Shown piece after piece: positions 1-62,959 of a stretch of 64,000 bases of DNA. Below the pieces are notes generated by a model that saw only the letters and a program-made list of their open reading frames with translations, had not been told where the DNA came from and did not search any database. The stretch spans positions 9,982,001 through 10,046,000 of the forward strand of contig CM102286.1 of the NCBI GenBank assembly GCA_046563655.1. The letters are read 5' to 3'. Every line of letters starts with the position of its first letter. Within the stretch, counting starts at the first letter, position 1. This stretch comes from Yuukianura sp. NJ FZ-2021. Taxonomy: Eukaryota. Both the position numbers and the translations under genes were made by a program.

Positions 1-28
1 AGCAGTCCAGGCAATCAAAAACAAAATA

Positions 29-1218
29 ATGTTGAAACATTTTTTCCCAAAAGAATTTGTTCTTGATCAAGAAAGGCAATTAATTGCAAATTTGACAAAA
101 CAATTTAGCTTTAAGCTGGAATTTACATCCCCATACCATCCAATAGCAAATGGCATGATGGAACGCTGCAATAAGACACTTAAGAACGGAATTGCAAAAA
201 CCGTTGATGAAAATCAAAAGAATTGGGATTTATGTTTGGAAAGAGCAACATTTGCTTATAATGTCCAAAAGCATTTTTCAACGGAATTTTCCCCTTTTAT
301 TTGTTATTTGGCAGAGGAGCTACTTTGCTAATAGACATTGACCTGCCGAACTTTGATTCCGATCAAGAGTTCGATTTGGAAAAATTAAATCAGCATACGC
401 ATGAAGCTCAGTTAAATTCTCATAAAAATCATGAGAAAAACAAATCCAGAGACAATAAGACTCGGAAGGAACAAAAATTTCAGATAGGCGAATTGGTCAT
501 CAGATCTAAGCCAATTCTGAAAAAGGATCTTAGTAAAGTGTATATTGCTCAAAAAGATGGGCCTTATAAAATAATTAGCGAAACTAGTGAGGTTAATTAT
601 AAAATTAAAAAATTAAACAGTCGTTCCAAGAATGTAATTGTTCATGTACGAGATTTGGAACATTATCACTCTGAATTTTTGCCGACTTCTGACAGTGAAA
701 GTGAAAGTGATCATGTCAGGGAAGTAGAAAGGAAAATTATGATCAGTGGTAACAATGGGGCTAGTGGAGTCCACATTACACCTTGTAGTCTGAGAAAGAA
801 GGATAAGAGTAGTACTGTTTCTTCTCCCCCTTCTAGTTTTCGTCACTCAGCTGTCAATGTAAAAAGTAAAACAGAGTCAACGTCTAATAAGCAAATTAGT
901 TCCGGCACTAAATCGCAGATTAGTGCGAAAAGTTACAGTTCCAACTCTAGGTCATTGTCCCGACATGCAAATCTTGCAAATAGTAGTGACAGTGAAGCCA
1001 GTTATGGTAGTGTGAGTCATCTGTCGGTTATAAAAACGACGAACAATGCACGGAGTCGTGTCATTTCATCTTCGTCCTCTTCTGAAGAAGAAACTCCGCT
1101 ACCTCCGGTTCAACCTCCGACAAAGGCCAATACTCCAACCAGAAGGTCAACAAGGCCCGGCACAGTTTCGACAAAGTATGGAGTCCCACTCTTAGTCTAT
1201 GGAGACGGAGACGGATGA
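29..1218 (+). mobile_element. Gypsy-type LTR retrotransposon 3' pol: integrase core and GPY/F region plus Ser-rich tail, frameshifted near 301-331
   Basis: FTSPYHPIANGMMERCNKTLK (rve motif), W...L...FAYN...H..T..SPF, KDGPYKI (GPY/F) and VHVRDL; split over ORFs 29..331 and 301..1218; followed by a PPT and an LTR. Confidence 0.9.
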
Positions 1219-2288: not shown

Positions 2289-2715
2289 ATGTGGAAGTTA
2301 AAGGAAAGTGGTGCGAAGACCGATGTAAGAACATTGGCATTGTTGTAGTGGACAGTGACGTGTATTTAGACGTATGATGAAGCATCTCCGTGAATGTTCA
2401 GTGATTGCAGTAGATATGGAGATGAGCTTCGACAAGAGATATATTGACAAATATATCTCCATTTTACAGTTAACGGTCTGTGGATCTGATTATCTCATCG
2501 ATACGTTCACGTTTCTGCATCTGTGTGATCAACTTAAGGAATTTTTTCACGACAGCGAGCATTTAAAAGTTTTTCATGGTAGCACCCATGACCAACTCGT
2601 TCTACAAATTCAATTTCAAGTTTTCATGGTAATAAAGATTGATTTTCAAATGGTTCGACTCGTTACAGTCAACTTACCTTACCTAACCTTACAGTCGACT
2701 CGTCATGACTACTAA
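2289..2715 (+). pseudogene. Rrp6/EXOSC10-like DEDDy 3'-5' exonuclease fragment
   Basis: IAVDME (ExoI), LQL...DYLIDT, KVFHGS..D..LQ..F (ExoII), matching the RNase D/Rrp6 pattern; truncated, frameshifted near 2370 and abutting the LTR. Confidence 0.75.
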
Positions 2716-3943: not shown

Positions 3944-4150
3944 ATGGGAGACTTTTACGTGACTCTTCAGAATGATTCTTCTTGAAATCATTATCCAGAG
4001 AACACAATTACAAATTCGAGAAGTCATTTTGCAGAGACAATTCGATTAGAATGTGTAAAATACGAAGTGGCACTAGTGGAGTGTACATATGTTCATCACG
4101 AGTATTTGCTTCACAAGGAAAGATGGCTTAGACAAGTTAGCAATCCTTAA
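3944..4150 (+). pseudogene. Polinton/Maverick minor capsid (penton)-like N-terminus with an in-frame stop
   Basis: GCCATGG start; MGDFYVTLQNDSS*NHYPENTITNSRSHFAETIRLECVKYEVALVECTY fits the recalled penton pattern FY.TL.S.SS..YP.NT...F...L...I.L....EVAL.E..Y. Confidence 0.7.
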
Positions 4151-5328
4151 AGTCGATTACCTCCCATGTCACTTTTGTTCAAAATAATATTGAAAGTTTG
4201 TTCTTTTTTTTTTTAGACAATCCAATACAGACCCGAACTTCCTAAGGATCGTCGTTAATGACTTTGTTCGACTTCGCCGCGGTATATGAAATTAAACCCT
4301 ACCTTTCTCTTATCACTCGCGACTTTGCGGATTACGACTTTTTTTGGCCACTATTAACGTCGAATTTTTTCTCGGTACGACCTCAACAATCGACATTTGG
4401 TGAAGAATTTTAAAACTTCCCGCAAAATTCTTGCAAGAAACAATGGAAGTTACCTTAGGAGAACGTTTTGGCAAGAATTTGACGTTATCCTGGAGGAGGC
4501 GTTTGCGAAGGAATCGTCAACGTCTACTTGGCATTGGTCTTGCATAATAGTGTGAGACACACAATGACCCAGTGTCAGGCAATCAATGTAAAATGAGGAT
4601 TACTTGATTTGGGATTCAATTAAGAAAAAAAACATTTCCTAGATTATGTTATCTATGCTCGTTAAAAGAAATTATTTCTCAATAAACATATTCTAAAATA
4701 GTTCACTAATGTAAAATAATTAAATTTCAATTAACTCAACGAAAATCGCCTAACATGGAATAAAAGTGATTTAACAATCCAAGAAATAAGTTTTTAGAAT
4801 CACAACCTACTTCACGCTTAATTAATATTCATTTAGTTCATTTTAGACATCAACAAACCCAGGAACATTTGGGGAATTTTAGTTACAAATAATTCGAAAA
4901 AGAAATGGCTACAATGTTGGCTGACTACAGTTCATCAGAAAAGTCAGACGATGGGATCACCATTGCGGCAAATCGGTTGATGCGTTGTAATCAATAAATC
5001 AACAATTCAACCTTGGGATTAGCTTTCAAGATCACTTGCGTAAGGCACATCAGTTAGTAGACTATGTGAACTAAGGCGAGAAAATTATTGATTTTTTCCT
5101 GACTCAATTAAACGCTATTGTTCCAGGTTGTGTTGTTTGTTCATCCCCTCTCGTGTGGATAAGGGAATGGCGTGGGATTCTATTTTTTAGAGGGGAGGTG
5201 GCTAGGGTGGATTTGGTAGCTGGCGGGAGGGGTGGAAAGTTTTGAATTTGAATTTGAGTGTTTTGGTTCTTTGAGTTTTTCGTGGTTGTTTTTTGTAATA
5301 GTTTTCGAGTTATCAATAAAAAGTTACA

Positions 5329-6410
5329 ATGGTTAAGATTTTTTGCGAATCAGCGCCAGTTGTACAACATAGATCTCGCGTGGATTTGGTTGCGTGTACA
5401 ATCAACGAGGTTGCTGCTGGTGCCGGTGAGGTTCGTTTGCCAGATTCATGTCAGGTGTGTGCCTTTTGTTCGCTTTTGGTTAGAAATTAAGAAAATATTA
5501 TTTTGTTATGAATATTGAGCGGATTTGCGTGTTTATGAAGATTAGTAAATACAGTACAGAGAATATCAGAGATTAATATTATTATTTTATGTATAGCGTC
5601 GTGGCCGTCGTGTTGTCCCCACTGTTAAAACCAGGAGTAGAATTTCCTCGACAAAGGTAACTTAACAGAACAGTCAGCGTGTATTATGTTCATCTCGATT
5701 TCAACTATCTCTGCATGTGAATAATTTCTGATTTGTAGGATCGACGTCGAAAGGGGAACATTTGGGTACCGTCAGATTCAAGTGAGTCATCTGATTCTGA
5801 AGAGTCACTTGCTGCAGATCCTGACGATCTTGTGCCTTATCGTCCACCTCAATTAAGAGGTGTTAGAATTGTTGGAATCGACGGTATTGAGTACGATATC
5901 GTCGGCATTAGAGAAATTGTCCAGGACAAAAAGGGCAATGAGGTCTACCAAGTAGATTTCGGACCTTTGTACTCTTCCGACAGGTAAGTTCGCCCCTTAT
6001 TATTTTTTTTAAATAAGCTTTTTTTTTTCAAAAAAAAAAGTTGGTTGGGCTGGGTTTATTTTCGTGTGTTTTTTTAGTACATTGTGATGCCCGTCTTTCC
6101 AGTGACTATTATTATTTTCTTTGCAGATACCAACTCGATCCCCTTAGGTCATTGTAGCAACTTCAAAGAACAAAGTGACACATGCGGAGTCCATAAAGTG
6201 CGTCAAAGGCGGGGCCAATAGAACAATGCCTAATATTATGACACTGCAACAGTATTACATCATTCAGTCTGGGTTTCATTTCCAACCGAAGAGGTTCTTT
6301 TAAAGTGGTACCACTACGTTTCAATTCAACATTTCGGAGACTTGCAGCATGTCGTCATTCGAGAGTAAGTAGATTTTTTTGTCCAACCGTACTGCCGGTA
6401 CTGGTTTGAC
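5329..6410 (+). CDS. Spliced cargo gene in the mini-Polinton: basic N-terminus, acidic Ser linker, chromodomain-like segment; last exon frameshifted
   Basis: Exons 5329-5454, 5597-5656, 5739-5983 and 6127 onward have GT-AG introns and join in frame: MVKIFCES...DSCQ|RRGRR...STK|DRRRK...SDSSESSDSEE...EYDIVGIREIVQDKKGNEVYQVDFGPLYSSDR|YQL. The 3' end is approximate. Confidence 0.6.
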
Positions 6411-6472
6411 ATGTCGAATTGTTGCATACAGAGTCTGTCGCCGCACAGCGTGTTAATGCATTTCGAAAGCGA

Positions 6473-7194
6473 ATGTCGGGGGAAGGGAGTAGCGACGAGC
6501 CATCTTCCAGTAAAAGGTTGGATGCCAAGGCGTTGCTCTCGGGTGGTCAGGAGAAAGAACCAGAAAAGAACCCAGACGCTGCTGACAACACTGAACAAGA
6601 ATTTTCTGAAAATTACTCAAATTCAGTCGAGCCACTCGTGGATTATATGGAGAAGGTGGCAAAGGTCGAGTACAATGAGAAGAACCAGGACATCTTTTTC
6701 AACGATGATTTTCTGGTCAAAAAGTTTGGACACACTGTCACATTTCGCATGCGTCTTGGATTCGACAACTACAGCCAAGGTAAGCAACAGTTGAACAAAA
6801 TGTTCTCTTGTTCCGTCACAGAGGTGTGCCAGACTGCCCAAAAACACTACGCATCGAACACAGGGGTGCATCCGCCGTCATGGACTTTGAGATGATCCCG
6901 GGACTCATCGGCATCCTCTTTGAACTGTTTCTCGAACACGGCGGAGCAGTCAGTGACTTGCCGGAAATTGAACTCACTCACAAAAAGAACATTGCAAAGC
7001 TTCAGGTCCGAGTCGGTAACCATACGCGCTTTACGGATTGGAAGGATTCGATGGCGGAATACAAGGAGGTGGAGAACAAGAACTACGGTCCAGAAGGAAC
7101 AAGATGGTTTCGCGCAAAACACAGTGACTTCAAGACAACCCAAATTGCCACTGACCGAGTAGTCTTGGACCTTGATGGAGTCATAAGACAGTAG
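6473..7194 (+). CDS. Orphan cargo protein A (frameshift near 6810-6830), paralog of B
   Basis: ORF 6419..6895 (ATG at 6473) joins ORF 6808..7194; segment LRIEHRGASAVMDFEMIPGLIGILFELFLEHGGAVSDLPEIELTH. Confidence 0.6.
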
Positions 7195-7489
7195 ATGCAA
7201 CCTTTTCAACATTTCAACTTGTTACAACTAAACATGTTAGAAAAACAGTACAATTGTCTACTAGTGCGTTTAGTATTGTATTTGTAAAATTGTCTAGCGA
7301 TACACACCATATTAAACAATAGCAACTTTCTCTTTCCTTACTGTCTCATTCTGTCTTTTTTGGTGAAATTTGATGAAAAAAAAAATAAACACTCTCAAAA
7401 AAAAAACAATGTGAAGAGAAAGCAGTCTGTCAGTTTGGGGTGGAGCGTGGCGTATGAGTTTAATTTGTTGGGGTCCATTTCATAGTTAG

Positions 7490-8108
7490 TTGGTCAGAAG
7501 CATCAGCGGTCGCCTCGTGCAGTCTGCAACTGGAATCCAGCACATCAACATCCACACTCTGTTCAATAGTGTCATTTTCGAGTCCACTCTTCTGCTTCAA
7601 ACAACAATGGCTGCAAGGAAACCCATCAGTAGGCAAACGAGACCTCATCCAGTGAACGACGTTGTTATTGTGCTGGTTTAGCAAAAGTGGCGAAGACAAA
7701 GCGATCAATATACGTCAAACCAGGAGCGCCACTGCCATTGACTTTGAAGATGTGCCGAAACTCATCGGATACCTCTTCCAGATTTACATGGAGAATGGTG
7801 GTGATTCGAGAGAGTTACCACGCATGCAGATTACACACGACACGGAACGGCATCTCATGACGCTGAAGCATGAATATGCCACTTCAGCCTTCCGGACATT
7901 CTGGAGCTGTCGCGACAAGTCGACTCCTCACGCATGGCAGGTAAAACATGACCAACAGGAAATGGAGGAAATGCCACAAGACACTGAGGCTATTGACGAA
8001 CAACAAACCAGACCTGAGTATCTTGAAACCGTCTATGAGACTACTGTCTACAACAAGCGAAATAGGAAGACTCTTGCACTCGAAACTGTCCACCAGTATT
8101 TCTTTTAG
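7490..8108 (+). CDS. Orphan cargo protein B (frameshift near 7665), paralog of A
   Basis: INIRQTRSATAIDFEDVPKLIGYLFQIYMENGGDSRELPRMQITH aligns without gaps to protein A (DFE..P.LIG.LF....E.GG....LP....TH). Confidence 0.6.
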
Positions 8109-8977
8109 ACTATAATAATTTTTACGATTGATATTAAAATTTTCTTATTGAATTAGAGGATCTCAAAATGAGTCAATTAAATTAAGCGATTCTTCCTGGA
8201 TATTCTGTCATACATATTCATCTTGTTTGATTTAATTAAAGACAAAGTCTATAACAAGGCGATGGGTTAGAATTTGGAATTTAATAGGTAAAAAAGAAAA
8301 ATACTTTTTTTTTGCATAACTCATTTTTTCCTTTTCAAAACCTTGTTGGATTTTTTTTTGAATTGCAATAGAAGTTTTTTTTTTTACATACGACACGACA
8401 CCATCTACCAATCCAAAACGGGTCAAAACCAAATAGACATACAACGCCATCTTTCACTCACAACTAGAACTTTCCACCCCTCCCGCCAGCTACCAAATCC
8501 ACCTCCCCTCTAAAAAATAGAATCCCACGCCATTCCCTTATCCACACGAGAGGGGATGAACAAACAACACAATCTGGAACAATAGCGTTTAATTGAGTCA
8601 GGAAAAAATCAATAATTTTCTCGCCTTAGTTCACATAGTCTACTAACTCACATCTAACGCGATTAATCAACATTATTGCGGCTCAGAGCGCAGTGATGTT
8701 CAAAATCCTTGCCAATTATTTTGTCCAGCCCAATCCCGTTTACACTATGGATTGAGAGATGAATCATGACTCATCAATCAGTCGTTGCTCAGAAGGTGTT
8801 AGTCCGGCAATGTCGAAGGCTCGTGGAAATTACATAATAACAGGTCCCACCCTTGGGACGGTTAATAATTGTATGTTAAGTAAGTAACAATCGGTTTCGT
8901 TCGCCTTCCAATTTGAAAGAAACTGACTTCAGAAAGATGCTCAGAAACTTGTAATTAACTTACACGAGTTGTACACT

Positions 8978-9035
8978 GTTAATGGGGTACCACATTACTT
9001 GGCGTCGTTAATGGGGTACCACATTACTTGGCGTC
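8978..9035. repeat. Perfect 29-bp tandem duplication
   Basis: GTTAATGGGGTACCACATTACTTGGCGTC occurs twice in a row. Confidence 0.95.
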
Positions 9036-9059
9036 TGTACCTGTGATGCCAATTCAAAA

Positions 9060-9407
9060 GGGATCTACAAAATCCGTTAACTTTGTTGGGAGGTGTCAAC
9101 TGCTCGAAGGATTAAAAGCAAATTCGAGATTGGAGATGCTATTGTTACCACTGGAAGAAAACGTACCCGTCCGTCACCCGGACGTGATAAGGTGCAATCA
9201 TTTGAAATCGATCGAATTTTGAGAATCATTTCCGACTCCTACAGAGTTCGGAATCGGGCTCCTACATTCAACTTCGTTTTCAGAGTTTCGTATGATTTCC
9301 CAGAAATACGTTGCAGCAAGCGAACGTTCCATAAAAAGCTAAAAGGAATGAACTTGGAGTACAAACGAAAAAACAGGAGCAGTGTTAGCGTTACATACGC
9401 TGTATGA
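9060..9407 (+). mobile_element. Tc1/IS630-superfamily (Sailor/DD82E-like) transposase N-terminal DNA-binding remnant
   Basis: STARRI...TTGRKRTR...ID.I.RII...Y.....PT......CSKRTFHKKLKGMNLEYKR fits the HTH-region pattern. Confidence 0.6.
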
Positions 9408-10510
9408 TAAATGTAAAATGTTTCTGTTAGGAAGAATGTAAAAATTCCATGGCTAGAGAACAGCGTTTAATTCACGTTTTTTGATAACAAGTGCAAATAT
9501 ATTCGCTGAACTTTAGAGTACAACAAAGGGAATGAACGGTGAAGTCCACATTTTATTATCTTAATTCTAATTACTGTTTCTATTCGTTAGTACACAAGTC
9601 AAGCCACAACCGAGATGCTGGGCTACCGATTCTAGAATTTGCAGCTACTGTCAAGGGTGGAAAAAACGAGATGGAAAACTCTAATGTTAACGAGATTGTT
9701 CATGAACAAGAAAACACTATATTAGCAACCCCACGAGACCTGTTTATGGGAAACTGCAGCCCCGTAGAAACACGACTAACGATACGGTCGAAAACCAATC
9801 CAGTAAAAAGCTAACTCTAACGTAAACGATTGTACTGATTTGATAAGAATTTTTTCCCCAGCAACTCATTATGCAGATCTAACGCCCGATCCAGAAGTGC
9901 CAAAATTCACAACCACTTGCGAAATTTCAACTGAGTGTGAAATGACCTTAACAATAGCGGACCAGACTTCGGCTGGCGATCCTGTAAATGTGGAAGGTTG
10001 TGTGATGTCGCATGATCCGATGTGTAAAATTTTAAGAAATGACGGATGGCCAATCTTGATGCTTTCATAGAGATGAGAGAAGCGGGATTCGATTTTGAAG
10101 TGTGTGGTAGTATCGATTTTTTCGGAATACTCCAGGGTATCTGTTGGTTGAATGATGCTGCGGACAATTCCCAAACGTGCTCCGCATTGATCATTGGAAT
10201 TATCATAATAATCAGTAATACTTAACGCCAAGTCCTTGCATATAATATGTTGTGGGTTGATGGGGTTTGTTTCTATTCTATAAGCGTCTTACACATTTTT
10301 GCTTTAAACTACTATTTGACGTTTGCACTTACTGGATTGAACGACGCTTACTTGCTAAAGCTCTCCTGTTGATTTGGAATTGACTGATACTTTTGCTGTT
10401 GTCAAGGTAATTGTTAATTATTCTGTTATTCAAATCATAAGTTGTAAAATTGAACTTTAACTTTGTGTAAAATGGCATAGAGTCTTGCATCACCCTTTTG
10501 TTTTAATTAG

Positions 10511-13692: not shown

Positions 13693-14139
13693 TTGGGTCA
13701 CGATCGATGCCGTTTTCGATATTTTCGTGTAACGTTTACATTAATACACCAAAAGGGCTGTTGGCCCGTCTCCATTATGAACCCCCGAAGTACTAACGTA
13801 CGATCTCAACTCTTGTCATCACTATTCGTTTCCATTCGGAGTCTACTCGGTGCTAGGTTCCAAGCTCTCCAGAAATTCAAAATTATTGAACCCCCTCAAA
13901 ATCAACTTGCGACTCAGCATCAATATATTCCCCCATGCTGCTTTATCTGTTTCAAATTTGATCATGTTCGCCGATACTGTCCGAACAATACTCTAGAAAT
14001 TCGCATGTCTCTTCCCTTCCAAAAAGAAAGGAAACACAGAAGACAAATACTGGAAAAACAATATCCCCATTACTTCAAAAAATGTCGAAATAAGTATGAA
14101 CAACATTCTTCAAAATCTTCGAAATCTGTAAATAAATAA
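13693..14139 (+). mobile_element. Retroelement-associated ORF with a CCHC zinc knuckle
   Basis: CFICFKFDHVRRYC = C-x2-C-x4-H-x4-C, with a basic C-terminus. Confidence 0.6.
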
Positions 14140-14341
14140 AATGTGAAGAAAAAAAATGTATCAAAAAAATAAATAAAATCATCAAAAAAAGACAATTTTA
14201 AAATCAAAATAAAAATTTAAATTCCCTACTCTACCCTAATTGGTATTCTCTCGAATACGAATTCGAGCCACAGAGGACCCCGCTGAGGCCGGTAAGGACC
14301 CCAGGATACCCCCAGAAGGCCCACTTTCTTAGGTTAGGATG

Positions 14342-15600: not shown

Positions 15601-17299
15601 TTTTGGAACTTGCGTGGTAGTTCTGAGTAATTCAAAATTTTGGAAAAATGGATTCAAAGACAATTCTTGACACGAAAAACTCGTAAAACCGGCCGGTTCG
15701 AATTATGTGTTGTATGACAAACTGGTAAGTTTGCCCACTCAGATTTTGTAAAAATTAAGCAGCATCCAATGCACTCTAAACAGCAAAGATGCCATCCTAC
15801 ACATGCTATTTGGGTGCCCACACAGGAACGTAACGGAAATCAAAAGAAGGTCATTTTAAATTCAAAATTAACAGAAGTGCCTGTTTGCGCAATGTGCAGA
15901 TAGTCATTTTTTGGTTTGGTTTCTTCTGAAATCAAGACTCCTCCACACATAACTACACTCAAAGTTGCACTAGCCTGGCCTTTGTGGAAACATGACAAAT
16001 GTTCCCTTTCCGATCACCCAGCCCAGCCTCTAGAACTACCTAGAAGTTTCTGCCCGTCCAAAAGCATAACCAAGTACCACTTCCTCCTAACAGTCTCGCT
16101 CAATCCTAACCACCATCTGGTCTGCTGCTCTACGGCCCGCAGCCCTTGTCCCCCTATTTTGGCACGGCACTCCAGAACCATCATTGGACAAACAGAATCA
16201 TTGAGTCATTGGACAAGGCGTTAGTAACTGGATCAGGCCTTGAATTTCTGGACAAGGATCTACTCACTGCGCAAAGCCCTAGTCACTGGACAAGAACTTG
16301 AATCACTTGACTACCCCCTGAATATTTCTTCTTCATGTTTTTCTTAATTTAAATACCCATACATTCCCCCTTCATCCGTCCATGGGACATGTATTGCATT
16401 GGTTGGAATACGTATGTTGCATTTAACAATCCGTTGTGTTTGGTTCTTTTGGTCATTAGACTAAACTCTTCCTTTATTTCAGTACAAGATACAAGTTACT
16501 GCATGGTCTGTCGTTGGATGAGCCCAATGGGAAAACAGTGACGCTAGGATTCACCCGCAGCAGTTTGATTTGCAATAAAAGAGCCATGTATTTTCCCCAG
16601 AATGCCGAAACTGAACTGTCGAGGATCCTGATTTCAACCTCAGGAAAACTGCAGCCTACAAAAAATAGTGAGAAATCGGAAATATTGCTCTCAATCGAAG
16701 AAGTGGAAATCCTACTATTCTTGTACGAACGCTACTACACACTAGATCCATGAACACGATTGCCAGGGATACCGCGTGTCAATCACTTCCTGTGGAGCTA
16801 CGTAACTACATGATACCGCGAAATTAGTGTTTAGTAGTGTGAATTCCGGTTTACCAACCTCAAGAATTTTACGATGTAATGAATAATAATATTACAAATG
16901 TGACAAGCCGAAGTATAGTATATTCCTATACCTCCTCTACTGGAGATGACATGAACATTACCGTTTTAAGACTTTTGACCTTTGATGCACTAGTACTTAG
17001 GTTAGGTTACGATCTAACCATAACGGGTCTAACTCTCGGTGCTTCGTGAATCTATTCACACTTCCAAGATTCGTTTTTTATTTAAGACTTCAGATTTTAA
17101 TATTTAAGACTTTTTGGAACTTTAGATCCAGGCGTTTCTAAGTATACAGTAGAGGAAGCCTTGGCTCTCATGTTGGACGTGTCAATGTCGAAAGAACAGT
17201 TACAATCGAATACGATGCAAAGCCCTAAAGAAGAATCGAATACAATGCAAAGCCATAAAGAAGAATCACTGATATTTATCCAACGTAAAAAGTGGCGGA

Positions 17300-19116: not shown

Positions 19117-22100
19117 TCAATTCTGAGAGTTGGGAGTAGAATTTAGAGCAATGTTCGCATGTACGCTTTCAGCATTGTCTTCATTGTTGCGATGAAGTTT
19201 ATCATCCCTTTCCCCAATTTGATCACAAGGTTCAATACAACATGAGGAAGACCGTACATTGATTTCCAATGTAGTCTGAGTGCAAGGTTGCGCACAAGTT
19301 GTGTGCAGTATCGTAGCAGTGTCGTCTTCACCAGAGTTACGAGATTCTGATTCACTGGTCTCATGACTATCCTCGCTTACCTCAGGTATTGTTGAGTCCA
19401 TTTCTTCGTTAATTGAGGAATCAGCAGCGTTTCCCTGACCATCATTTACATCAATTTGTACTTTTGGTCTTTCTTCGATGCTTTCGTTTGCTTCTGCAAC
19501 TTCGCTTTCACTTACATGCTGAAAAGATGAAGACAAACATTGTTGCGGCTTGCGAATGCTGAGAATCTGGAACAATGAGTTAACAAGAAAAATAAGTCAA
19601 TTAGTCACACAATATTTTGTACCGTGATTGCTTCTTCTAGACGATGTAATGGAAATGAAACCTGAAGGGTCTAATTAATGCAAGAAGCCGCATTAAATCA
19701 TAGAAACTTCGCGATCTTACGTAGTTTAAGACGCCTTCGTTAAATGGACAAAGAAAAAGTTCAGAAGTTCAAATTCTTAAACGAAAGGGGTTTGCTTAGT
19801 TATGAAGGAAAACCAACTGAAATATTGAGATCGTTACGATATTTTCTAATTTTCAACTTACTTCGGGTTTTAACGGAGACGGTAGTGAAATTTCCTGAAG
19901 AGCTGGATCCTCGGCGTCAATATCTGTAGGGACCTTCCGCGTCTTGAATGTTAATGGTGTTCGGCGCAAAATATCCTCAATCTGCGACGTCGTCTTTTCC
20001 TGTTGAGATTTAGATGGAAAGTGAGATCGTAGCATTAAAACCTCTCTTCATGCACAGAAGTTCCCCATTTCAAAGGAAGCATAGAAATAAGGATTAAGAG
20101 AAAAATCATTCCAGCGAAAGCTTTATGAGCACTTCAAATACCTTAAAGACATTGCTAATGCAAATAGGTAAGTAAGAGAGTTTGAATTTGCATTTAGACG
20201 TCTCTTGATTGGCCAATAGAAGAATGATAGTTAACTTCCCCGTTGAACCTACCCGTTCGATTACTTGCACGAGGTACTAAAAGTGATTGCTTACCCGGTT
20301 TTCAGTCATCTTCCTCTTCAGAAGTGCAATATTTTGAAGCAAGTTGGTATGGCGAACTTCGATGTCACTCAAAATATTTCCCATTTCTTGCATCAAATGA
20401 ACTGACTCTGAAAAGTGCATCTCCCAGCTACCGGGTGGTACAGCTTTACCCGAAAAATATAGTTCGAATTCATCTTCCGGCATACTCAAAGATTCTGCAT
20501 TCAGGCCTTGAATAAACGTCACAGCACAGCACTGCAGAAAAATAAAGTAAGTTAGAAACTAGCTTGAATAAAGTAAGTTGATGTCTATTGAATCAAAACT
20601 AAATACTGGGAAGTTAGGTGTGTCCTTCATTATATATAGCGAAAATTAATAGTAGTGTTTTATTCTCGTTACCAAATTGGTGAAAAAATAGCCAGCTTCT
20701 CCGCTCATCAGTCGAGATGCATTGCAGAATCTGTTGATGTAGTTGATATTGCTCTGCAGTCGCGTGGGATTCGCTTTGATTACGATGTAAATGAGAGCTG
20801 GAAGAAAGTCATCAGCAGAAGTAGGACCCTGTTTTGATTTCCCCAAAGCCTTCATAATACGCGTACAACATTGAGAGATGTGATGCAGTTTGTCCTGTGG
20901 AGCTTTGACAGAATCGACTCCAATAATATCTACAATGAAAATACACAATTACTCAAGTACAGTAAAACAATTGAAGCTTTTGACAGCATCAACAGAAATG
21001 CAACTCTCCTGGAAGAAGAAAATAACCCTCTTCATTCACGTTTCACATATCAATCACTAATGCTAACGTAAAACCATTCACAATAAATTATAGTGAATTA
21101 TCAAATCTATCTAGTGGATTTTCCAAAGTCGGAATCGTTCTTGTTACTATTCCTAGCAACGCAACATGAAAAAAAAACAGTGGAGCTTTTCTACTGAGCG
21201 ATCAGCGAAAAAAATGAGCGTTATTGCAGAAATCTCACATCGCCCTAACGCTCATCGAAATTGGTTGAACAATAAAAGAAGGTAAGAAACTAAAACAGTT
21301 AAAAATATTGTAATAACTTTGTTAATTACATTGTTCAAACAATCTCCAATGTAGTTCGGGAGATGTGAGATTTCTGCAAAACGTTTGATTTTCTCGCCGA
21401 ACGCTGATCGCTCAGTAGAGAAGCTAAACTGTTTTTTTTAAAGTTAGGTTTCTAGGAATAAATAGTAGTCTTGGAACAAGACCAAGACTCTTGGCCAGAG
21501 AGACTAATTTGGAAGACAAATTGTAATGAGTTCAATTTAATTACACACCACTGCAACAACTGTTTAAAAATGACCAATGGGAATGGGTACCCGCAAAACT
21601 TGGAGAAAAAAAAACTAATACTTCTGGTAAAAAAATCCGACTTATACCACCCGAGTTGATTCACAAACGAAACTTAGTACATAGTTGCGTAATCTAATCA
21701 GAGAAGTGCATACCGTTGATGGCGGCCCATATGAAGTCTCTTACGTCCTTGTCCCGCTCATTTAGGCGGATTTCTAGTCTGTCGGTACCGATCCAATTCA
21801 GCTTCCTAATTCTGTACAAAGAAACGCAAACCGAAAAGTTATACGTAATGTCCATCAGCTGAATTCATATTTTTTGGTTTGGTATTTATCAAAATTTTAG
21901 GCACAAAAATGTTCACTGACTCACTTTGTTTGTAGTGCTAAATCCTTCGCTTCGTCGTCCATATTAGTAAAACTGGGCATGAACAACTCTTTGTAAAGTC
22001 CAATCGTGAAGTACTTCTCAATTAGATCCATTAGTTTATCCTTCTCCTCGGGCTTTACGCTCTGATAAATAGGGACGGCGTCCACTTTGCGTCTAAAGTT

Positions 22101-22929
22101 ATCGTAAAACGTCTGCACCAAATCCGACACGTCTTCTATGCGTCCTTCCTCTACCAACTTTCTGAGATCCGCTTCACATTCCTTCACCTTGACTGTGATA
22201 TCACGCCTTATTGGATTCGGGAATGGCGACAAAAAATCGTTAAACTCTTTGCGTAGTGCTTCGAATTCTACGTCGTTTGTCCGGGGAGTTCTTTCTAATC
22301 GCACTTTTTGCACTGGCTCTTTCACCTTCTGTTGTGAAGGAGAAGGAGTTTTACTAAATACTGATCGAAATGAGGAACTTTTTCTGTCTGTCTGATGACG
22401 TTTCTTCTCTTCAAACTTGGCGAAACTATTGGTTAATGGAGATGGAAACTGCAGAGAATCCAGTGACCTATACAAAAACAAGCAATGAGCAGCTTACTGA
22501 TATAAGAACAATATTAAGAAGAAATAATACGAGAACCAGATAATTGTTAACAAAATGAGAGGAAGTTAGAAAGAAGGCTAATTAGAAGGCTTACAATTTA
22601 GAAGCAGCGGCCTTAGGTAATGTAGCAAACGCCGAAATCCCAGACCTTCCGAAAAAGCTTTGAACTGCCGCTGTACCAACGTGTGAAGCTGGCTCATCTT
22701 TACTGTTTGATTCTGACTGAGCCAACTGTGCTAATTGTAGCTTTGCTTGTTGGCTTCTTTTATACTCTTTGTAGCAAACAGAACAGTATCCTTCTTGGAT
22801 TTCGTTTCCGTAGTGTCCACATCCGTTTTTACAGAGTAGGTCCTGTTGACTGATCTTGAATTTGTAGTGTCTTGAAGTACTTGATGTTGTCGCCAACCCA
22901 GAAATTGCACCTCCAGCTGATTCTTCCAT
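19117..22929 (-). CDS. RABGEF1: Rab5 GDP/GTP exchange factor Rabex-5 (A20 zinc finger, helical bundle, VPS9, coiled coil), 7 exons, ~685 aa
   Basis: Exons 22929-22595, 22467-21925, 21811-21714, 20929-20673, 20531-20295, 19999-19862 and 19566-19117 are all GT-AG and in frame (2058 nt). [11 protein letters not shown]....GYCSVC (A20), SADDFLP and [10 protein letters not shown] (VPS9), LPSPLKP C-terminal motif. Confidence 0.93.
21171..21438. mobile_element. Palindromic MITE in Rabex-5 intron 3
   Basis: AAACAG..AGCTTTTCTACTGAGCGATCAGCG...TGCAGAAATCTCACATC is inverted against GATGTGAGATTTCTGCA...CGCTGATCGCTCAGTAGAGAAGCT...CTGTTT. Confidence 0.75.
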
Positions 22930-23140
22930 GGTGGCGTGATTGTGATACCGCTGGTGTCTTCCTAGGCAGTGATCCTCCGGGTAATCGTACAGTAAGAGTC
23001 GTACTAGTCCAAAGGTGAAAGTTACAGCCTGTAACTTACAGGTACAAGTGAGTCGCACGTCAAATAGTTTAATAACTTCTGGTTTTACTCCAGTCCTTGC
23101 TACAAAAAATATAACCGCTTTATATCACAATATTCACTAT

Positions 23141-41146: not shown

Positions 41147-43445
41147 TCATTGTTGTTCATCTGCTCCGTTTATTGACCTTCGGTGGATTTCTGGCTTGCG
41201 GTGGAGCTGGGCCTTCTGCCCTGAGAGAGGTGGTCTGAGAGGCCATTTTGGGAGTTTTGAGTAGCCTAGTGCTACAACTGTTCAAAGTGCAATGAAGGCA
41301 CTTTTGAATGACTTTTGAAGTTCTAAGCCTGTTCAGTCTCCATGGCATAAAAGGAAAAAGGCCATTCCAGAAATCGTTTGTCTACCAAGTTGTTTTGGGG
41401 AAGTTCTATGTATACTTACATTTGATTAGAATAATCAATTAATAATGTCTTTCTTTGTCGTCAAGGCACAGGAAATGTTGGCGACTGCTACTCCGGAAAT
41501 TAGGTTATACCAGTTAGGTTTTTGTGAGATGCGGCGGAGGAGTCGCGGGAGATTTGAGATACGGTGTGGAATATATTTATGCACGCCCTCTTTTCACAAG
41601 TGGATATTTATTTCAATGAAAAACTTGTGTCCACAAGCAATAATGGCAACTCATATTGCGCGTACATAGAAACATTGCTTTGCTACAGAAAGGACTAAAA
41701 CCTCCCAGGGTGGATGTGCTTTGTACTATGAAGAAACAATTATTGGAATGGCGGACTCGATTACAATCTTTAATTTGTAATAAAAATTACTAACAATTAT
41801 TATTACAATTATTTATCACAACAGCTGGTACTAGATCCCGCAAATCATGGTGGTGGCGCAGAGATGAATCTCAGGGAAGGCAGCCACATCGGTCAAGACA
41901 TCCACGTCAAGTGGCACAAATTCAAAGGCAAGCACTACATAATGGTACGACACTTCGTCAATGGAACTGTGGAAGACGTGGAATCAACATTAGACTAATT
42001 TGTTGTCCCTCGACGAGCAAAATATACAAAGACAAAGAGGACTTTCTCTCTCCCTCAGTTCGTTTTCGTAGATGTTCCAACGAGACAAAAAAAGCGAACA
42101 GGAAATTATTTGAAGTTGGGTTCTCATAAATTCAACTTTAGGCAGCTGAGTTAAAATGAACCTGTTTGTAGTTACTAAAAATAAACGCTGAATTATTTCG
42201 ATTACTTTCTTTGAATATCTTGACGATGTCGACATTGAAGACATCTACAAGACATCTACTTAAAGACTTTAACATCTACGTGTATCCAGTTATCGATTTA
42301 CAGGAGTTTCACCATAAAGTGTACGAAGAAAGACATGAAGAGTTTAAGTCAATGGGATTGGCTACAATGTGTCATCACTTACTCAAAATTACACTAGCAA
42401 ATAAGGTCAAGCAGCAGATTTGTCTACGAGAAACAAAATCGGTAGATTACCGAATGAGTTATTTGAGTACGCATGATTGGACACATATTACTTAATTTCA
42501 CTTTCGAATGTGTTAGTGGAGAAGATTGAGGTGGATGTGCTCGACAATGACCTCAGGAAGCAGTTTTCGGCCGAAAATACCAATAAAAAATTTCAAATTT
42601 CTGCAAAGAGATACAGGCATTGCTCAAACCCACTAAAACTTCATTGGAAGCTGAGTTGTCAAAGAATATGCTTGCTGCAAATCAAATATGCCAAGCTATA
42701 TTTCAAACATTATACATGGGGACAAAGTATCGAGCTAAAGACCTGGATGAACAAGTATTTCAAATCTTAAACAGCGAAATTATTGCGGCTATTGCCAAAA
42801 AAAAATCACCAATTACAGTTGAAGAATTACGACAAAATATAAAATATTGGACACCTTGCCGGGAGTGGATGAGACAGGGGATAAGGAGAGAAGAGACAGA
42901 AAGTTATCTTGTCTCATCTCCAAAATTTCTTGTCGCGGGGATAAAAATTGGGTTTTTGTCTCTGGCCAGAGACAGGGATAAAACTAACTTTTAACTTTCC
43001 CACCAAAAAAGTCACAAGTTTTGCAAAATCAAAACCCGCTGAAAGCCTACTCAAGATTTCTTTTAACTTTAACTTTTCGTTTACTTAAGAGCATTTTATA
43101 TTCAACAAGCTTAATTTTTAACTTAATCATCTACTTAATTATCATAGTATATCATAATTAAATAGTTGAATCTGAACTACACTGAACACACGGATACTTT
43201 GGAGTCACCAAGAATGGACAAGGTAGGTATCACCTAAAAAGTGTATGAAATTGTTCAAAGTTTGACAGTGGAACTGGCAGTAACTAACGTTTTCACTGTT
43301 ACATTTCAGGCAACTAATCGGTCATCACAGCAAGTGTCATAGTTTCTAATCAACGACAACATGAACTCAATGCTTGGCCTTTCTTTTGACCTAAAATCGC
43401 TGCTCAACATCCTGAAGCGCATTATGACTGAGTACAAAACTGATC

Positions 43446-56712: not shown

Positions 56713-58036
56713 CATGGCAGCAGCATCAAAGACATCATTGGCTGATCTTCTGAAGTTACGTCAGAGCTTTGGCTACAAATCCTGATGCACAACAGGGTCA
56801 TCGCCATTTGCAATAAACAGACACCAAATCCAACAATCAAAACCGCACAACGGGAACTGATCAGAGTCAGGAATGACATGCTACACAACAAAATCATCAT
56901 CGCCACGACTAACGATGAAGAAATTAAAGATCATTCAAAGACGCACATAGAGTTTGTCACAATGATTGGAACCATGAATGAAAAGCTGATGTCACTTCAG
57001 CCAGTACCAACTCCATGCTCAGTACTCGCTCAATCAGTTTCGCCATCATCCACACTACCACATCTTCATCATGTCAACACCTAATTTCCAAAGATGAGTC
57101 TACCAACTTTCAAAAGAAAGTATGAAGACTGGCTGACATTTCGAGATCTATTCCGCAGCACAGTCATATCCAACACAACCTTACCAAACAGCGTCAAAGT
57201 TCTGGTACCTCCACTCCGCTCTCAAGGGTGAAGCCGGTAAAACCATCAAAGGTACTCCAATTTCCCATATCAACTTCCCAGGAGCATGGAAGCTGATGGA
57301 GGAACGGTACCATAACAGAAGAGAACTCATCTTTACATTGATTGAGAAACTGATTAATTTTCCGAAACTGAAGCAAGAAAATGCTGCACAGTTAAGGAAA
57401 TGAATTGACTGTTTCAATGAGGCAATTACACAGTTGGAAACACTTAACGAGCCAACAGAACACTGGGATTCCATCGTCGTCTATCTTCTCAAGGAAAAAA
57501 TGGATCCAGACTGCCGTCGTGACTGGAGCAAGCAAATAAAGGGCTCTTCCGAAATTCTCTGAGACAAAGGAATTTCTGTAAAATTATATCCGAGGACTCG
57601 AATCCACTGAATTTTTATCGTCGTTCGGATCATCCAGTCAAAGCAAGGCTCACTCCAGTTCCACTGAAAGTAAGCCAAATGAACAATCACACAAGTTCAC
57701 ATGTCCGCATTGTCAAGGTGAACATGGTTTGTTCAAGTGTGACAAAATGGATACAGTTAAGTGTGAAAGACTCGATAGAACAAGGAATACATCAACTCCT
57801 TACAAGAAAAATACAAATGGAGAAGTCCAAACCGAAATCTTGCCATCGGTGACTTGCTCATCATCGAAGCAGATGACACTCCACAACTCAAATGGCGCAT
57901 GGGCACAGTCATGAAAACGTATCCTGGTCCAGATGGACTTGTTCGTGTCGTCAAACTGAAGACGAACAAAGATTCAGTCAAACCTTCAGTCTCCAAGGTC
58001 TGTGTTCTGCTTTGGATCAGAAGATCCAAAGAGTGA
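56713..58036 (+). mobile_element. BEL/Pao retrotransposon remnant (gag joined by deletion to the integrase C-terminus)
   Basis: LPTF...YEDWLTFRDLF...YLHSALKGEA...AWKLMEERY.N (DUF1759-type gag), CPHCQGEHGLFKC knuckle, GDLLII.AD.TP.LKW.MG.V...YPGPDGLVRVV. Confidence 0.9.
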
Positions 58037-58225
58037 TGATACTGCTATTTATCGACTTAAACGACAACCATCCCGTTAGTCAATTCGCAAATCACCATTT
58101 TTACCAAGTTTGGATATCAAATTAAGTTTAATTCTAATCATACATACTGTTTGGGTGAAATGACAGTTTCATTCTTATATGGGTGTGTCGGGTTGAGTCG
58201 ATACCAGTGAGGAAGCGGTTTTCTT

Positions 58226-61056
58226 TGTAGCGTCTCGCACCGCTACTCACCAGAAATCTGGCCGCAGCCACGCCCTCAGACTCTCAATCACTGATCAGCA
58301 GATCCCACAACTGCCCAAAGACCAATAACTCACCAAAACGCTGCCAACAACAATCAGTGAATAAATGTATGAAAATATATTTATTCACTGGAATAAATAA
58401 ACAACTGAAAAACACTGATGACTACATCATATATACAACTGATCTCCTCCTCCTCTAACAACCAAAACCAGACTGACTAACTCTATACAAAACTCCTATC
58501 CTCGCTCGCTCCTCGCCTCATCTCAAATCTACCGCGAGCCACATCATCATCTCAACCTGCCCCTACTATAACACTACACTAACGCTATGGGCGAGCAGGC
58601 GTCTCACGTTCCCCCTTCCGATGGATGGCGTTCCAGTCGAACCACGGGCGACATCCAACTGCAGCAGCTCCGCAGACGACTGCTACTCCCGGATCTCTGC
58701 AACTCCATCTCCATCGGCATCATCCTCACCGTCATCTCATCATGGACATCAGCGGAGTCTTCATCATAGTAATCGTCAACCGCAGCATCGGATTCCTCCC
58801 TGATGATCCATCACGTCAACACTTGCACTTTCACTAATTTTTCTCAAAATAAACTGGATTGGAGCCCATAAATGGACTCCACTGTCACTGCATTTCCACA
58901 AATTTGCGACTCCACCTTCCATCACTTTATACGGGACAGTGAGACCCCCAACAGTCGAAATTGTAGACAATGAGCACCACAACAACACAAACACTTTGAA
59001 GCCAATGACTTGACTCCCTTACGCTGCTACAGATTCTGAGTCCTCCTTCCTTCACTTTACGGGACAGTGAGACCCAACGACTCATAATTTGTAGACAGAA
59101 CCGCAGCACTTCAACAAATAAAAAGCCAATTAATTCACTTGTACACACTTACAAAAACTTTTTTCATTTTTTCATTATTTAATCTTTTTTAGGGGAAAAG
59201 ACCCTGAATACACATAAATTTCAATAATTTCACTCTCCTGCACTGCGACAAATTCTGTGTTCCTCCTTCCTTCACTTTACGGGACAGTGAGACCCTCAAC
59301 AACACAGAACTTGAAGCGAAACAATCCAATTCAACTGATTTTTTCCAATAATTTCACTTCACTACACTTGCACTCACTTTTCATGTTTTGATTTTTGAAT
59401 TCGGAGGGATTAAGACCCTTAGTTTAGTTTTTAGCACCGTAGCACTATTAAGCTCATGATTTTGAGCTAGAGTAACGCCGCACTTCAGCAACGTGGCCGG
59501 GCAAACGCTCTCTTCTTGATTTTGAGGGATTAAGACCCTCCGTAGCAATTTTTTGTAAAAGCTCACTGTTTGGAGCTAGAGTAACACTGCACTTCAGCAA
59601 CGTGGCCGGGCGAATGCTCTCTTTAATGTGACCTCCTTGGAGACCTACATTCTGCAGTATGCCACCTTCATGGTCATACAAATTTTTACTAACAACACTT
59701 ATCACTTCACTTCTCACTGCACATTTGACTTCCTTTTTCCTATGCAGAGGATCCCGCAGTCTCCTCCACTAACTTCCCCGAACCACTATATACACATAAT
59801 TGGAGCTGCTAAAACGCAGCTCCATAAGCACTCACACCAATAATAATTTTAACTATTCACAAACTTTTTACAATGAGTGATTCACAACACTCTATTTCCA
59901 CTATGACAAAAACTTCCACCATGATTTCCACAAAAACCACTTCTTCCATAAATTTTTCTTAAATTGGAGCCAACTGGGTTGACTCCTGTGCCACTTGAGC
60001 AATTTCTATGATTTTTTAGATTAACACTTTCGTCACACTTCATTTTATCACTTTTTAAAATTTTGAATTCACTTTGTCACAACTTTGACATTTTTGGATC
60101 ACTTCAACCGCACAATCACTATCACAATCACTTATTTACATCACATATATACACTACTGCCTCCTTCTTCAGCGCGGCAGACTTTGGAACTAACAACATC
60201 GTTGGTGCTGAAGTGAAGTGCACATTTTCCAGGGCCGAAATGAGCGCCTGTGTGGGATCACTTCCAACACTCATGATTGGAGCCACCGCAGCGACTCCAT
60301 GTTCTAACTTTCGAACTAACTTCTGCATGCTTTCCACTACCACATGCATTGCCGCAGCAACAATTTGTTTTTCATCACTTGTTTAGTACATTACCATGTT
60401 TCTTCTTACTTTTGGGATTTGCCCATATGCACTGTACACTTCACTAATTATCTTCTTTTTGATCATCGGTGACCTTTGACATGATTGGAGCCACTAATCG
60501 TGACTCCTAGACACTATGAAAGCCATCGCAATGACTCCATGCACTTCCACTTTTGATGAACAACCGCAGCTGATCATGATTTTTCACTATTTTTACCAAA
60601 ATTTCGGGTCAAACGCATTTGACCTTTAATGAGCTCACTGACCTTTGGTAGTTGTCTCACGAACGGTCGCCACTGTGTAGCGTCTCGCACCGCTACTCAC
60701 CAGAAATCTGGCCGCAGCCACGCCCTCAGACTCTCAATCACTGATCAGCAGATCCCACAACTGCCCAAAGACCAATAACTCACCAAAACGCTGCCAACAA
60801 CAATCAGTGAATAAATGTATGAAAATATATTTATTCACTGGAATAAATAAACAACTGAAAAACACTGATGACTACATCATATATACAACTGATCTCCTCC
60901 TCCTCTAACAACCAAAACCAGACTGACTAACTCTATACAAAACTCCTATCCTCGCACGCTCCTCGCCTCATCTCAAATCTACCGCGAGCCACATCATCAT
61001 CTCAACCTGCCCCTACTATAACACTTCACTAACGCTATGGGCGAGCAGGCGTCTCA
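58226..61056 (-). mobile_element. Young complete non-autonomous LTR retrotransposon (2831 bp; LTRs 58226-58606 and 60676-61056)
   Basis: 381-bp LTRs with only two substitutions seen; 4-bp TSD TCTT; on the minus strand PBS TGGCGACCGT and PPT GGAAGGGGGAA; LTR termini TGAGACG...CTACA; no gag/pol motifs. Confidence 0.95.
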
Positions 61057-62959
61057 TCTTTCAGATTTAAAATAGCATAGTCAAATGCTTCCGAACTGGC
61101 TTTTGACTCAAGCCCGAACCACAACAATACACTTTTACACTAGTTCTTATGGGAAAAATGAGTTGTGTATACTTTTTGTCTTTTAGTATCATTCATTCAT
61201 TCAGAAGTCTTCTGCTGCATCTCTTTGGTTTAAGACCATAATGTTAAGAATAGAATTTTCTTTTCCTCTCAAGTATAACTGTAATTCGATTAATTAGGAA
61301 GATAAACTATTAAAAACCTAAATCATCTTCGGATTCAATTCAGAACCAGCCCTCAATTCAGTACACATTCAAACTCAAAAGTGCAATCTTCATTCATCTT
61401 GGATCTGTGCCCTAAATTTTTCCTGCTGTCTGTCAACCTTTCAACAATTTCAAGCAAACGGCAAAACCTGTCAGCTCCAGCAGGAGAGGGCCTAACCGAT
61501 TTTGAGAGGCGCTTTCTTTCAAAATATTCCCTGCACAGATCCTGGATTCATGTGGTTTTATTGTTCAATTTTATTTTTTGGAAAAATTGGACTCAGGTCT
61601 AAATTGGTTAGGTTAGGTTATGGCATGTTGGCTTTGTTGGCTAGGCATGTTGTGGCTTTTTACCACATATTTTAAAATAGTAAGATGTGCCACATAGGTT
61701 TTTAGAATGAGCGTTTACTTTTGAGCGTTTTAGGATAGACTAAGTGTTGACTTTTAGCCTTAGGTTATATGTAGCGACTCAACGGTCAAAAAAGAACAAA
61801 ACATCAACACAACATCGCAATAGCATATAGTATATAGGGAAAATGTTGACTTTGTCGGTTTCAGGCTAAAATCACAAAAGCACAAAACATTAAAAAAAAC
61901 TACTCAGTTTTACTAAAGGAATATTTCAAAAAAAATTGTAAAAATTTCATTTGAAAATGTCGTGACAAAGAAGAGCGCAGGCGAGCAAAAAAAAAACTTT
62001 TTTTTAAAAATTTTAAAAATTATGCGGTAATCCCCAACCTCTTACTCGATAGACCTTGAGGATGGCCATCTTGTTTGCAAAATGTGCAAAATCTATGTTT
62101 TCAAAATTTTGCATTTTTGGCAACATCGAAAGAAACAGTGACTGTAGTTAATTTTTGACATTTGACCTTGACCTCGACGTTGTAGCGGATTGTGGTTTGT
62201 CAGTTTTACTAAGTTTCTGCAGAAAATTGGCTTGAGATTTTAGATGTATCAACGCCATCAACTATCAACATGTTTTCAAAAGAATAAGGTGCAAGCTAAA
62301 CGTTTGGCGACATAGTCCGAGGGAGAGGGTAGAAAGAAAAATAGTTTTCAGTTTCTTTCAGGGTACGCCTGATAAAAGTTTCGCTGCGTAAGTTTCACGA
62401 TAGTTTCCTGAAAGTTTCAACCGGGAAAGGAGCGCGTGCTCCTTTCAGCTTTTTATAAAAAGCTTATAACGACATAATGTCGTTGTCGCATATGCAGTTC
62501 CCTCTCTTTTACTTTTAATCTTTTCTTCTTTTTGCCTTGCCTGTAGTTCAGAATCATACTGCGTGCTGATTTACACTTATCACAAGTAAAGTTGTACTAA
62601 CTTTTACTTTAAGCGTTCCAATAATTAAAACTATCGGAATGCCAAGACAAAAGGATCCCATCTGGGATAAATTTGACCGATTACCTAATCCGGTGGGTGG
62701 CAAAGACCTTTTCTCGAAACGTTCGGAAACTTTCAAACGAGCGCTCCTTTCGCGAAAGTAGCGCTCTTTTCCGAACCCTGGTTTCTTTTTAGCTGCAGTT
62801 TTTATTACCTCAGAGCTGTTTAAAGTTCTTGCCATTTTGTATTGGCATTATCAGGGGTCAAGTCCCTTGATTTGTGACCAGCGCCACCATTCTAGAGCTT
62901 CACCTTCCATCGATTGATGGAAGTTGTTTTATTGTTATTTTTAACAGAATGAAATTACT

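Follow-up and report, generated by a model that had tools for sequence, protein, structure and literature searches.

What are the genes that fill a small, Maverick-like insertion in the genome of Yuukianura sp. NJ FZ-2021, and what might they do for the element that carries them? We addressed this question in a 64-kb stretch of DNA (64,000 nucleotides; NCBI GenBank assembly GCA_046563655.1, contig CM102286.1, positions 9,982,001 to 10,046,000 of the forward strand), referred to here as the window, within which a small element bounded by terminal inverted repeats encloses three genes, termed gene 0, gene 1 and gene 2 (Table 1). Gene 1 and gene 2 are almost certainly ancient paralogs, arranged in tandem on the same strand and deeply diverged from each other, and sequence comparison places them in a family that is very rare and uncharacterised, of which two further members are known.

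The relationship between the two genes is carried by a conserved core in each. As the original prediction for this locus had proposed, the two core peptides, both encoded on the + strand, align without gaps, with 18 of 47 residues identical and 32 of 47 positive (BLASTP, E 8e-13). When each peptide was compared by tblastn with all six frames of the window, the other copy was recovered (E 2.6e-10 and 5e-10) and no third match was found in the window below E 1, whilst a profile of the core applied to the six-frame translation likewise returned two copies only, those of gene 1 and gene 2. The alignment withstood a shuffled-sequence test, its Smith-Waterman score of 109 comparing with a mean of 28 for the shuffles (standard deviation 5, maximum 62; z = 16), none of which scored as high in 5000 trials. 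The similarity lies at the protein level and is not that of a DNA repeat, with DNA identity of 52% over 141 nt and identities at the first, second and third codon positions of 57, 74 and 26%, respectively. Since the third positions are at chance level and 74% of the second positions are identical, it is the protein that has been conserved rather than the DNA. The view of the pair as an old duplication kept under protein-level constraint is upheld by this codon-position pattern and by the proportion of nonsynonymous differences (pN 0.385) set against that of synonymous differences (pS 0.80, saturated); on these figures the core is under constraint as a protein while its synonymous sites are saturated. 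A further resemblance had been suggested upstream of the cores, between KKFGHTVTFRMRL and TLFNSVIFESTL, and this one was lost on closer comparison. The two pieces gave no BLASTP alignment at E <= 100, their local score of 14 fell under the shuffle mean of 19.4 and was reached by 4988 of 5000 shuffles, and neither piece matched the family profile in hhalign. They also stand at unequal distances from their cores, the gene 2 piece being in another frame.

Searches of large collections confirmed that the family is unnamed, with 0 Pfam families at E <= 1 for the gene 1 and gene 2 proteins, 0 matches in PHROGs and 0 matches of the family profile among PDB sequences at E <= 10. A two-protein profile run against 1.84 billion representative proteins (hmmsearch) had a single match, P0001 (234 aa, E 1.6e-4), and P0001 came back together with P0002 (353 aa, 62% identical to P0001) when 5.8 billion clusters were searched with a word-based profile. 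These relatives are encoded on short contigs, from ENA in the case of P0001 and from JGI in that of P0002, and Pfam gave sub-threshold noise only for P0001 and nothing for P0002 at E <= 0.01. The word-based search with gene 1 exon 2 found no relatives, and in 185,579 prokaryotic genomes the family pattern occurred in 41 stretches, of which 0 were confirmed. P0001 aligned with gene 2 over 59 residues (24 identical, 41%; BLASTP E 7e-13) and with gene 1 over 44 (15 identical; E 8e-8). As P0001 is as close to gene 2 (41%) as gene 1 is (38%), the duplication is old relative to the divergence of P0001.

Alignment of all four sequences identified 13 invariant columns (K, D, P, L, I, L, G, G, L, P, H, L, L). 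The core, of about 50-60 residues, can be written, with h for a hydrophobic residue, as K-x-h-x-h ... D-[FM]-x-x-[VI]-P-x-L-I-x-x-L-x-x-[IF]-[YF]-[ML]-x-x-G-G-x4-L-P-x-h-x-x-h-x-H. This core, including D-[FM]-x-x-[VI]-P-x-L-I and the GG and LP motifs, is common to P0001, P0002 and the window proteins, and is N-terminal in P0001 and P0002, each of which continues into a long helical C-terminal part that has no relation to the corresponding part of the window proteins. Outside the core, the four family sequences are unrelated to one another.

Frameshifts had been read in this copy, and the sequence can be accounted for otherwise. In gene 1 the supposed frameshift is really a short intron that joins both frames in phase, the shift between the open reading frames (ORFs) 6410-6895 and 6784-7194 being matched by the intron's length (44 mod 3 = 2), and its GTAAGC donor hexamer is also used by a host-gene intron in the window. 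The product comprises 225-244 aa, in which the conserved core comes after an acidic, Ser-rich N-terminus, and an ATTAAA lies downstream of the gene. More generally, the window has a eukaryotic look, its ORFs lying in fragments and short GT..AG introns interrupting genes of host type.

The 5' end of gene 2 admits several solutions. Its conserved frame is open from 7656 to a stop at 8106-8108, with no ATG ahead of the core, and it is overlapped by an upstream ATG frame that could be intronic, or coding if one frame break is allowed. Using a script that listed every in-phase GT donor, we obtained models in which a 38-nt first exon from ATG 7373 is joined through a GTGAAG donor at 7411 and a 271-nt intron, or in which ATG 7607 is followed by a donor at 7629 and a 67-nt intron with a poor acceptor. 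The donor at 7191 of gene 1, spliced to the acceptor at 7680-7681, offers a third model. A fourth takes ATG 7607 as the true start, with one frame break within the 26-nt overlap at 7656-7681. A 53-nt intron at 7629-7681 was rejected because its phase does not fit. Gene 2 need not be broken: its sequence is compatible with more than one splice model as well as with a single frame break.

The product of gene 0, which precedes the pair, includes a chromo-like segment besides two stretches of biased composition, one Arg-rich and the other acidic and Ser-rich. It had no Pfam match at E <= 10, the Chromo model included; PDB sequences matched it only at E of at least 0.65, an ESM Atlas feature search gave weak, sub-threshold chromo leads (0.80-0.85), and no homologue was found among longer proteins.

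The three genes fill the interior of an element whose boundaries are sharply defined. In a global alignment, the two terminal arms differ by 1 mismatch and by one 9-nt indel near 5197-5205, the latter being their sole structural difference, and blastn aligned them over 189 nt at 94.7%. Exactly two occurrences of the repeat's first 25 nt were counted in the window, against 0 expected by chance, and blastn within the 64-kb window detected no further copy of the element or its ends. The termini read AGTTAGTAG ... CTACTAACT. All three genes contain introns, and the interior has a higher guanine plus cytosine (GC) content (0.438) than the flanking 2-kb bins (0.377-0.386). Rfam had no match over positions 4000-10000.

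Table 1. Coordinates of the element and its features (positions in the window)
Feature	Position	Strand	Details	Basis
Element	5052-8648		3597 bp; gene 0, gene 1 and gene 2 fill the interior
Left target-site duplication	5046-5051	.	6 bp, CACATC	Sequence, script print
Left terminal inverted repeat	5052-5241	+	190 nt; starts AGTTAGTAG	Repeat search, blastn, global alignment
Gene 0	5329-6157	+	Tentative exons 5329-5454, 5597-5656, 5739-5983, 6127-6157; ~153 aa	Frames, GT/AG sites
Gene 1	6349-7194	+	Exons 6432 (or ATG 6473)-6779 and 6824-7194	ORFs and sequence
Possible first mini-exon of gene 1	6349-6364	+	ATG 6349; perfect GTAAGT donor at 6365; 67-nt intron
Gene 1 intron	6780-6823	+	44 nt, GT..AG; GTAAGC donor	Donor and acceptor phases read from sequence
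Conserved core of gene 1	6841-6981	+	47 codons	Pairwise alignment, profile
Short ATG frame upstream of gene 2	7607-7681	+	TAG 7679-7681; overlaps conserved frame at 7656-7681
Gene 2, conserved frame	7682-8108	+	After good acceptor ..CTGGTTTAG, AG at 7680-7681
Conserved core of gene 2	7698-7838	+	47 codons	Pairwise alignment, profile
Right terminal inverted repeat	8468-8648	-	181 nt	Repeat search, blastn, global alignment
Right target-site duplication	8649-8654	.	6 bp, CACATC	Sequence, script print

Mavericks (Polintons) are usually 15-20 kb long, and it has been proposed that their cargo genes act as vehicles for moving genes from one animal species to another. At 3.6 kb, the present element departs from the about 15-20 kb of a Maverick/Polinton; it also differs in carrying no gene for a protein-primed polymerase, integrase, capsid, ATPase or protease by Pfam among ORFs of at least 70 aa. 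Target duplications of 6 bp, long inverted ends and short terminal motifs of AGT or AG type are described as hallmarks of Mavericks (PMC8097293). The element resembles a Maverick/Polinton in its long terminal inverted repeats and its perfect 6-bp duplication, and its termini are of AG/AGT type with an imperfect motif. Nematode Mavericks are reported to have a GC-richer cargo region of 2-5 kb that adjoins the left repeat and holds intron-containing genes (bioRxiv 10.1101/2022.07.12.499685), and the GC-richer, intron-containing interior found here is like that region. The original prediction had placed the paralogs in a mini-Maverick; the ends agree with such a setting in their inverted repeats and 6-bp duplication, the AGT-type termini being imperfect, and no Maverick core gene accompanies the pair.

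Integrase-like ORFs do occur at 2-1215 (+), with matches to rve_3, Integrase_p58_C and a Tf2-1-type SH3 domain. They lie 3.8 kb outside the element and are probably the end of a long terminal repeat retrotransposon cut by the window edge.

The function first suggested for the paralogs was that of a PC4/PUR/Whirly-like fold which binds single-stranded DNA, perhaps as a heterodimer, and serves protein-primed, strand-displacement replication. Structure prediction gave this suggestion no support. AlphaFold2 models from four-row alignments were unreliable both for gene 1 exon 2 (predicted local distance difference test, pLDDT, 42.9) and for P0001 (pLDDT 49.7), the ESM Atlas model of P0001 scored 0.44, and an ESM Atlas search with P0001 gave no usable feature match, its structure rows all having template modelling (TM) scores <= 0.36. 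Foldseek searches with the low-confidence models yielded no match at E <= 0.001, whether for gene 1 against PDB (0 of 304), for P0001 against PDB (0 of 80) or for gene 1 against the BFVD viral models (0 of 389). Both low-confidence models place one or two strands ahead of an amphipathic helix over P-x-L-I-G-x-L, with further structure behind it. Of the strand-strand-strand-helix pattern that had been proposed, the strands before an amphipathic helix find some echo in these models. The upstream similarity behind the third strand is not significant, and conservation continues past the helix (GG-x4-LP-x-hydrophobic-x-x-hydrophobic-x-H), which argues for an internal helix rather than one that caps a strand-strand-strand-strand-helix unit at its C-terminus.

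We regard this reading, of a single-strand-binding fold that serves replication, as highly improbable; the heterodimer in it is unsupported rather than refuted. In favour of the reading are the strands that the low-confidence models place before the helix, the adjacent pair of paralogous half-units, such as a heterodimeric fold could be built from, and ends judged to be of the protein-primed type (PMC8097293). The likeness to these folds is a loose one, and the family lacks a sequence, profile or fold match (no PC4, Whirly or PurA in Pfam at E <= 1) as well as conserved aromatic or basic binding residues, the invariant columns including one Lys, one His and no aromatic residue. The proteins are, moreover, acidic, with isoelectric points of 4.8 and 6.8 for the cores and 4.5-6.2 for the whole pieces, and a role in protein-primed replication has no backing in an element devoid of a polymerase for such a factor to serve. 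Another possible likeness, as a lead only, is to ubiquitin-like (beta-grasp)/PB1 domains, with which the family would share a predicted hairpin-helix-strand order and an invariant Lys opening the first conserved strand; some ubiquitin-like/PB1-type domains pair between paralogs. The window family differs from these domains in showing no Pfam match at E <= 1, no Foldseek match and no recognised acidic partner motif.

There are three other accounts of the genes. That they are passenger host genes, a tandem host pair captured between two ends, with no role for the element and with gene 2 decaying, would fit the host-type introns of all three genes, the want of an in-frame ATG before the gene 2 core unless splicing is assumed, and the presence in the window of no second copy for comparison. 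We consider this unlikely, because the gene 2 core is intact and has the same protein-level conservation (41% with P0001, 38% with gene 1), and because near-identical ends and a perfect target duplication indicate a recent insertion, for which little decay is expected. A selfish poison-antidote pair, in which one paralog does harm and its partner counteracts it by co-assembly through the core, so favouring retention of the mini-element, would account for linked, co-oriented and diverged paralogs in a mobile element without an encoded mobility function. Precedents come from nematodes, where toxin-antidote elements are reported on transposons and Maverick cargo genes are linked to them (bioRxiv 10.1101/2022.07.12.499685). 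Neither Pfam nor PHROGs revealed similarity to a known toxin or antidote family, however, and gene 0 is left unexplained. The animal toxin-antidote pairs on record are also not known to be paralogs of each other, and we hold this account to be very unlikely. It is improbable, too, that the pair is one gene encoding a single two-core protein, by splicing from the GT at 7191-7192, just before the gene 1 stop, to the acceptor at 7680-7681. Judged from the sequence, donor and acceptor are compatible in phase, and ..CTGGTTTAG is the only usable acceptor before the gene 2 core; but the GTAGAT donor is weak, phases match by chance one time in three, P0001 and P0002 each have a single core, and the ATTAAA follows gene 1.

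The reading we prefer, as quite possible though tentative, takes these intron-bearing genes to be cargo or accessory genes that a non-autonomous Maverick-type element carries, with a small structural or interaction module as their shared core. Its separate parts differ in strength. The setting, as cargo of a Maverick derivative, is probable. The element would be an internally reduced, non-autonomous Maverick type that depends for its movement on a full-length relative at another place in the genome, and gene 1 and gene 2 would be cargo or accessory genes that it carries. The mechanism, by which the core acts as an interaction module, is doubtful by comparison and is read from residue patterns: the core would be made up mostly of buried-type residues, with a hydrophobic helix face, a Pro cap and a GG / LP turn; the flanks and C-terminal tails would vary freely. 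Such a predominance of buried-type residues would point to a small structural or protein-protein interaction module and not to a nucleic-acid-binding surface. The paralogs may then associate through the core, with each other or with a common partner, and probably in the nucleus, since the Arg-rich and acidic Ser-rich stretches of gene 0 and the acidic Ser-rich N-terminus of gene 1 would give these products the look of nuclear proteins.

Several observations weigh against this cargo-and-module reading. Among the ORFs of at least 70 aa scanned between the repeats on either strand none matched a Pfam family, so that no polymerase, integrase, capsid, ATPase or protease was detected inside the element, which is at most a non-autonomous derivative. 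Nor did the 64-kb window show an autonomous Maverick, or an ORF for polymerase, capsid, ATPase or protease, in a Pfam scan that covered all stop-to-stop ORFs of at least 70 aa bar a few overlapping alternative-frame ones. With no core gene found, the Maverick assignment is drawn from the ends alone. Those ends carry the terminal motif AGT-T-AGT-AG, which is of AGT type and yet is not the clean (AGT)2 or (AG)3 given for vertebrate elements (PMC8097293); the vertebrate motif may not be that of this host lineage. Selection on the genes of the element is sampled by the single copy in the window, and gene 2 may be broken in that copy, which weakens the claim that both copies are functional. Both structural models fall below pLDDT 50, and they disagree after the GG / LP turn, where the gene 1 model has one or more strands and the P0001 model a helix. 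The nuclear location, finally, is taken from composition only.

A bolder extension of the cargo reading, for which we see a slim chance, would make the 3.6-kb element a satellite of a full-length Maverick, one that has shed the viral genes and kept a self-contained module of three genes. The paralogs would be heteromeric through an undescribed fold and would act as a pair on the element's own ends, on the replication or packaging machinery of the helper, or as a poison-antidote couple. If this were true, the mini-element would persist by means of its own proteins and would not be only a passive hitch-hiker.

Beyond the element, the window contains host genes and traces of other mobile DNA. A Rabex-5-like host gene at 20649-23124 (-) comprises A20 zinc finger, DUF5601 and VPS9 pieces with short introns between them. 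Two groups of ORFs, at 2359-2712 (+) and 42172-42991 (+), match the 3'-5' exonuclease family DNA_pol_A_exo1 (E 6e-10 and 0.0018), the latter with a weak HRDC match beside it, and these may be duplicated exonuclease genes. A DUF1759 match lies at 57137-57400 (+; E 1.9e-15), a domain known from the gag proteins of Pao/BEL-type retrotransposons, and the adjoining region at 58000-62000 has a strongly negative GC skew (-0.29 and -0.20). Short tandem duplications were found at 17204-17263 (30-nt units, 93% alike) and at 14130-14203 (37-nt units, 70% alike).

Overall, the result is a sound annotation, which places an orphan protein family in a small mobile element. It is a moderate lead as well, and not the demonstration of a new mechanism. 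With no relative in Pfam, PDB or PHROGs and two other members in very large collections, any function found for these proteins would be new. Ultimately, if the element is a derivative that carries cargo alone between intact ends, it would show that Maverick cargo can travel without the viral genes, and the paralog pair would offer a handle on what such cargo does.

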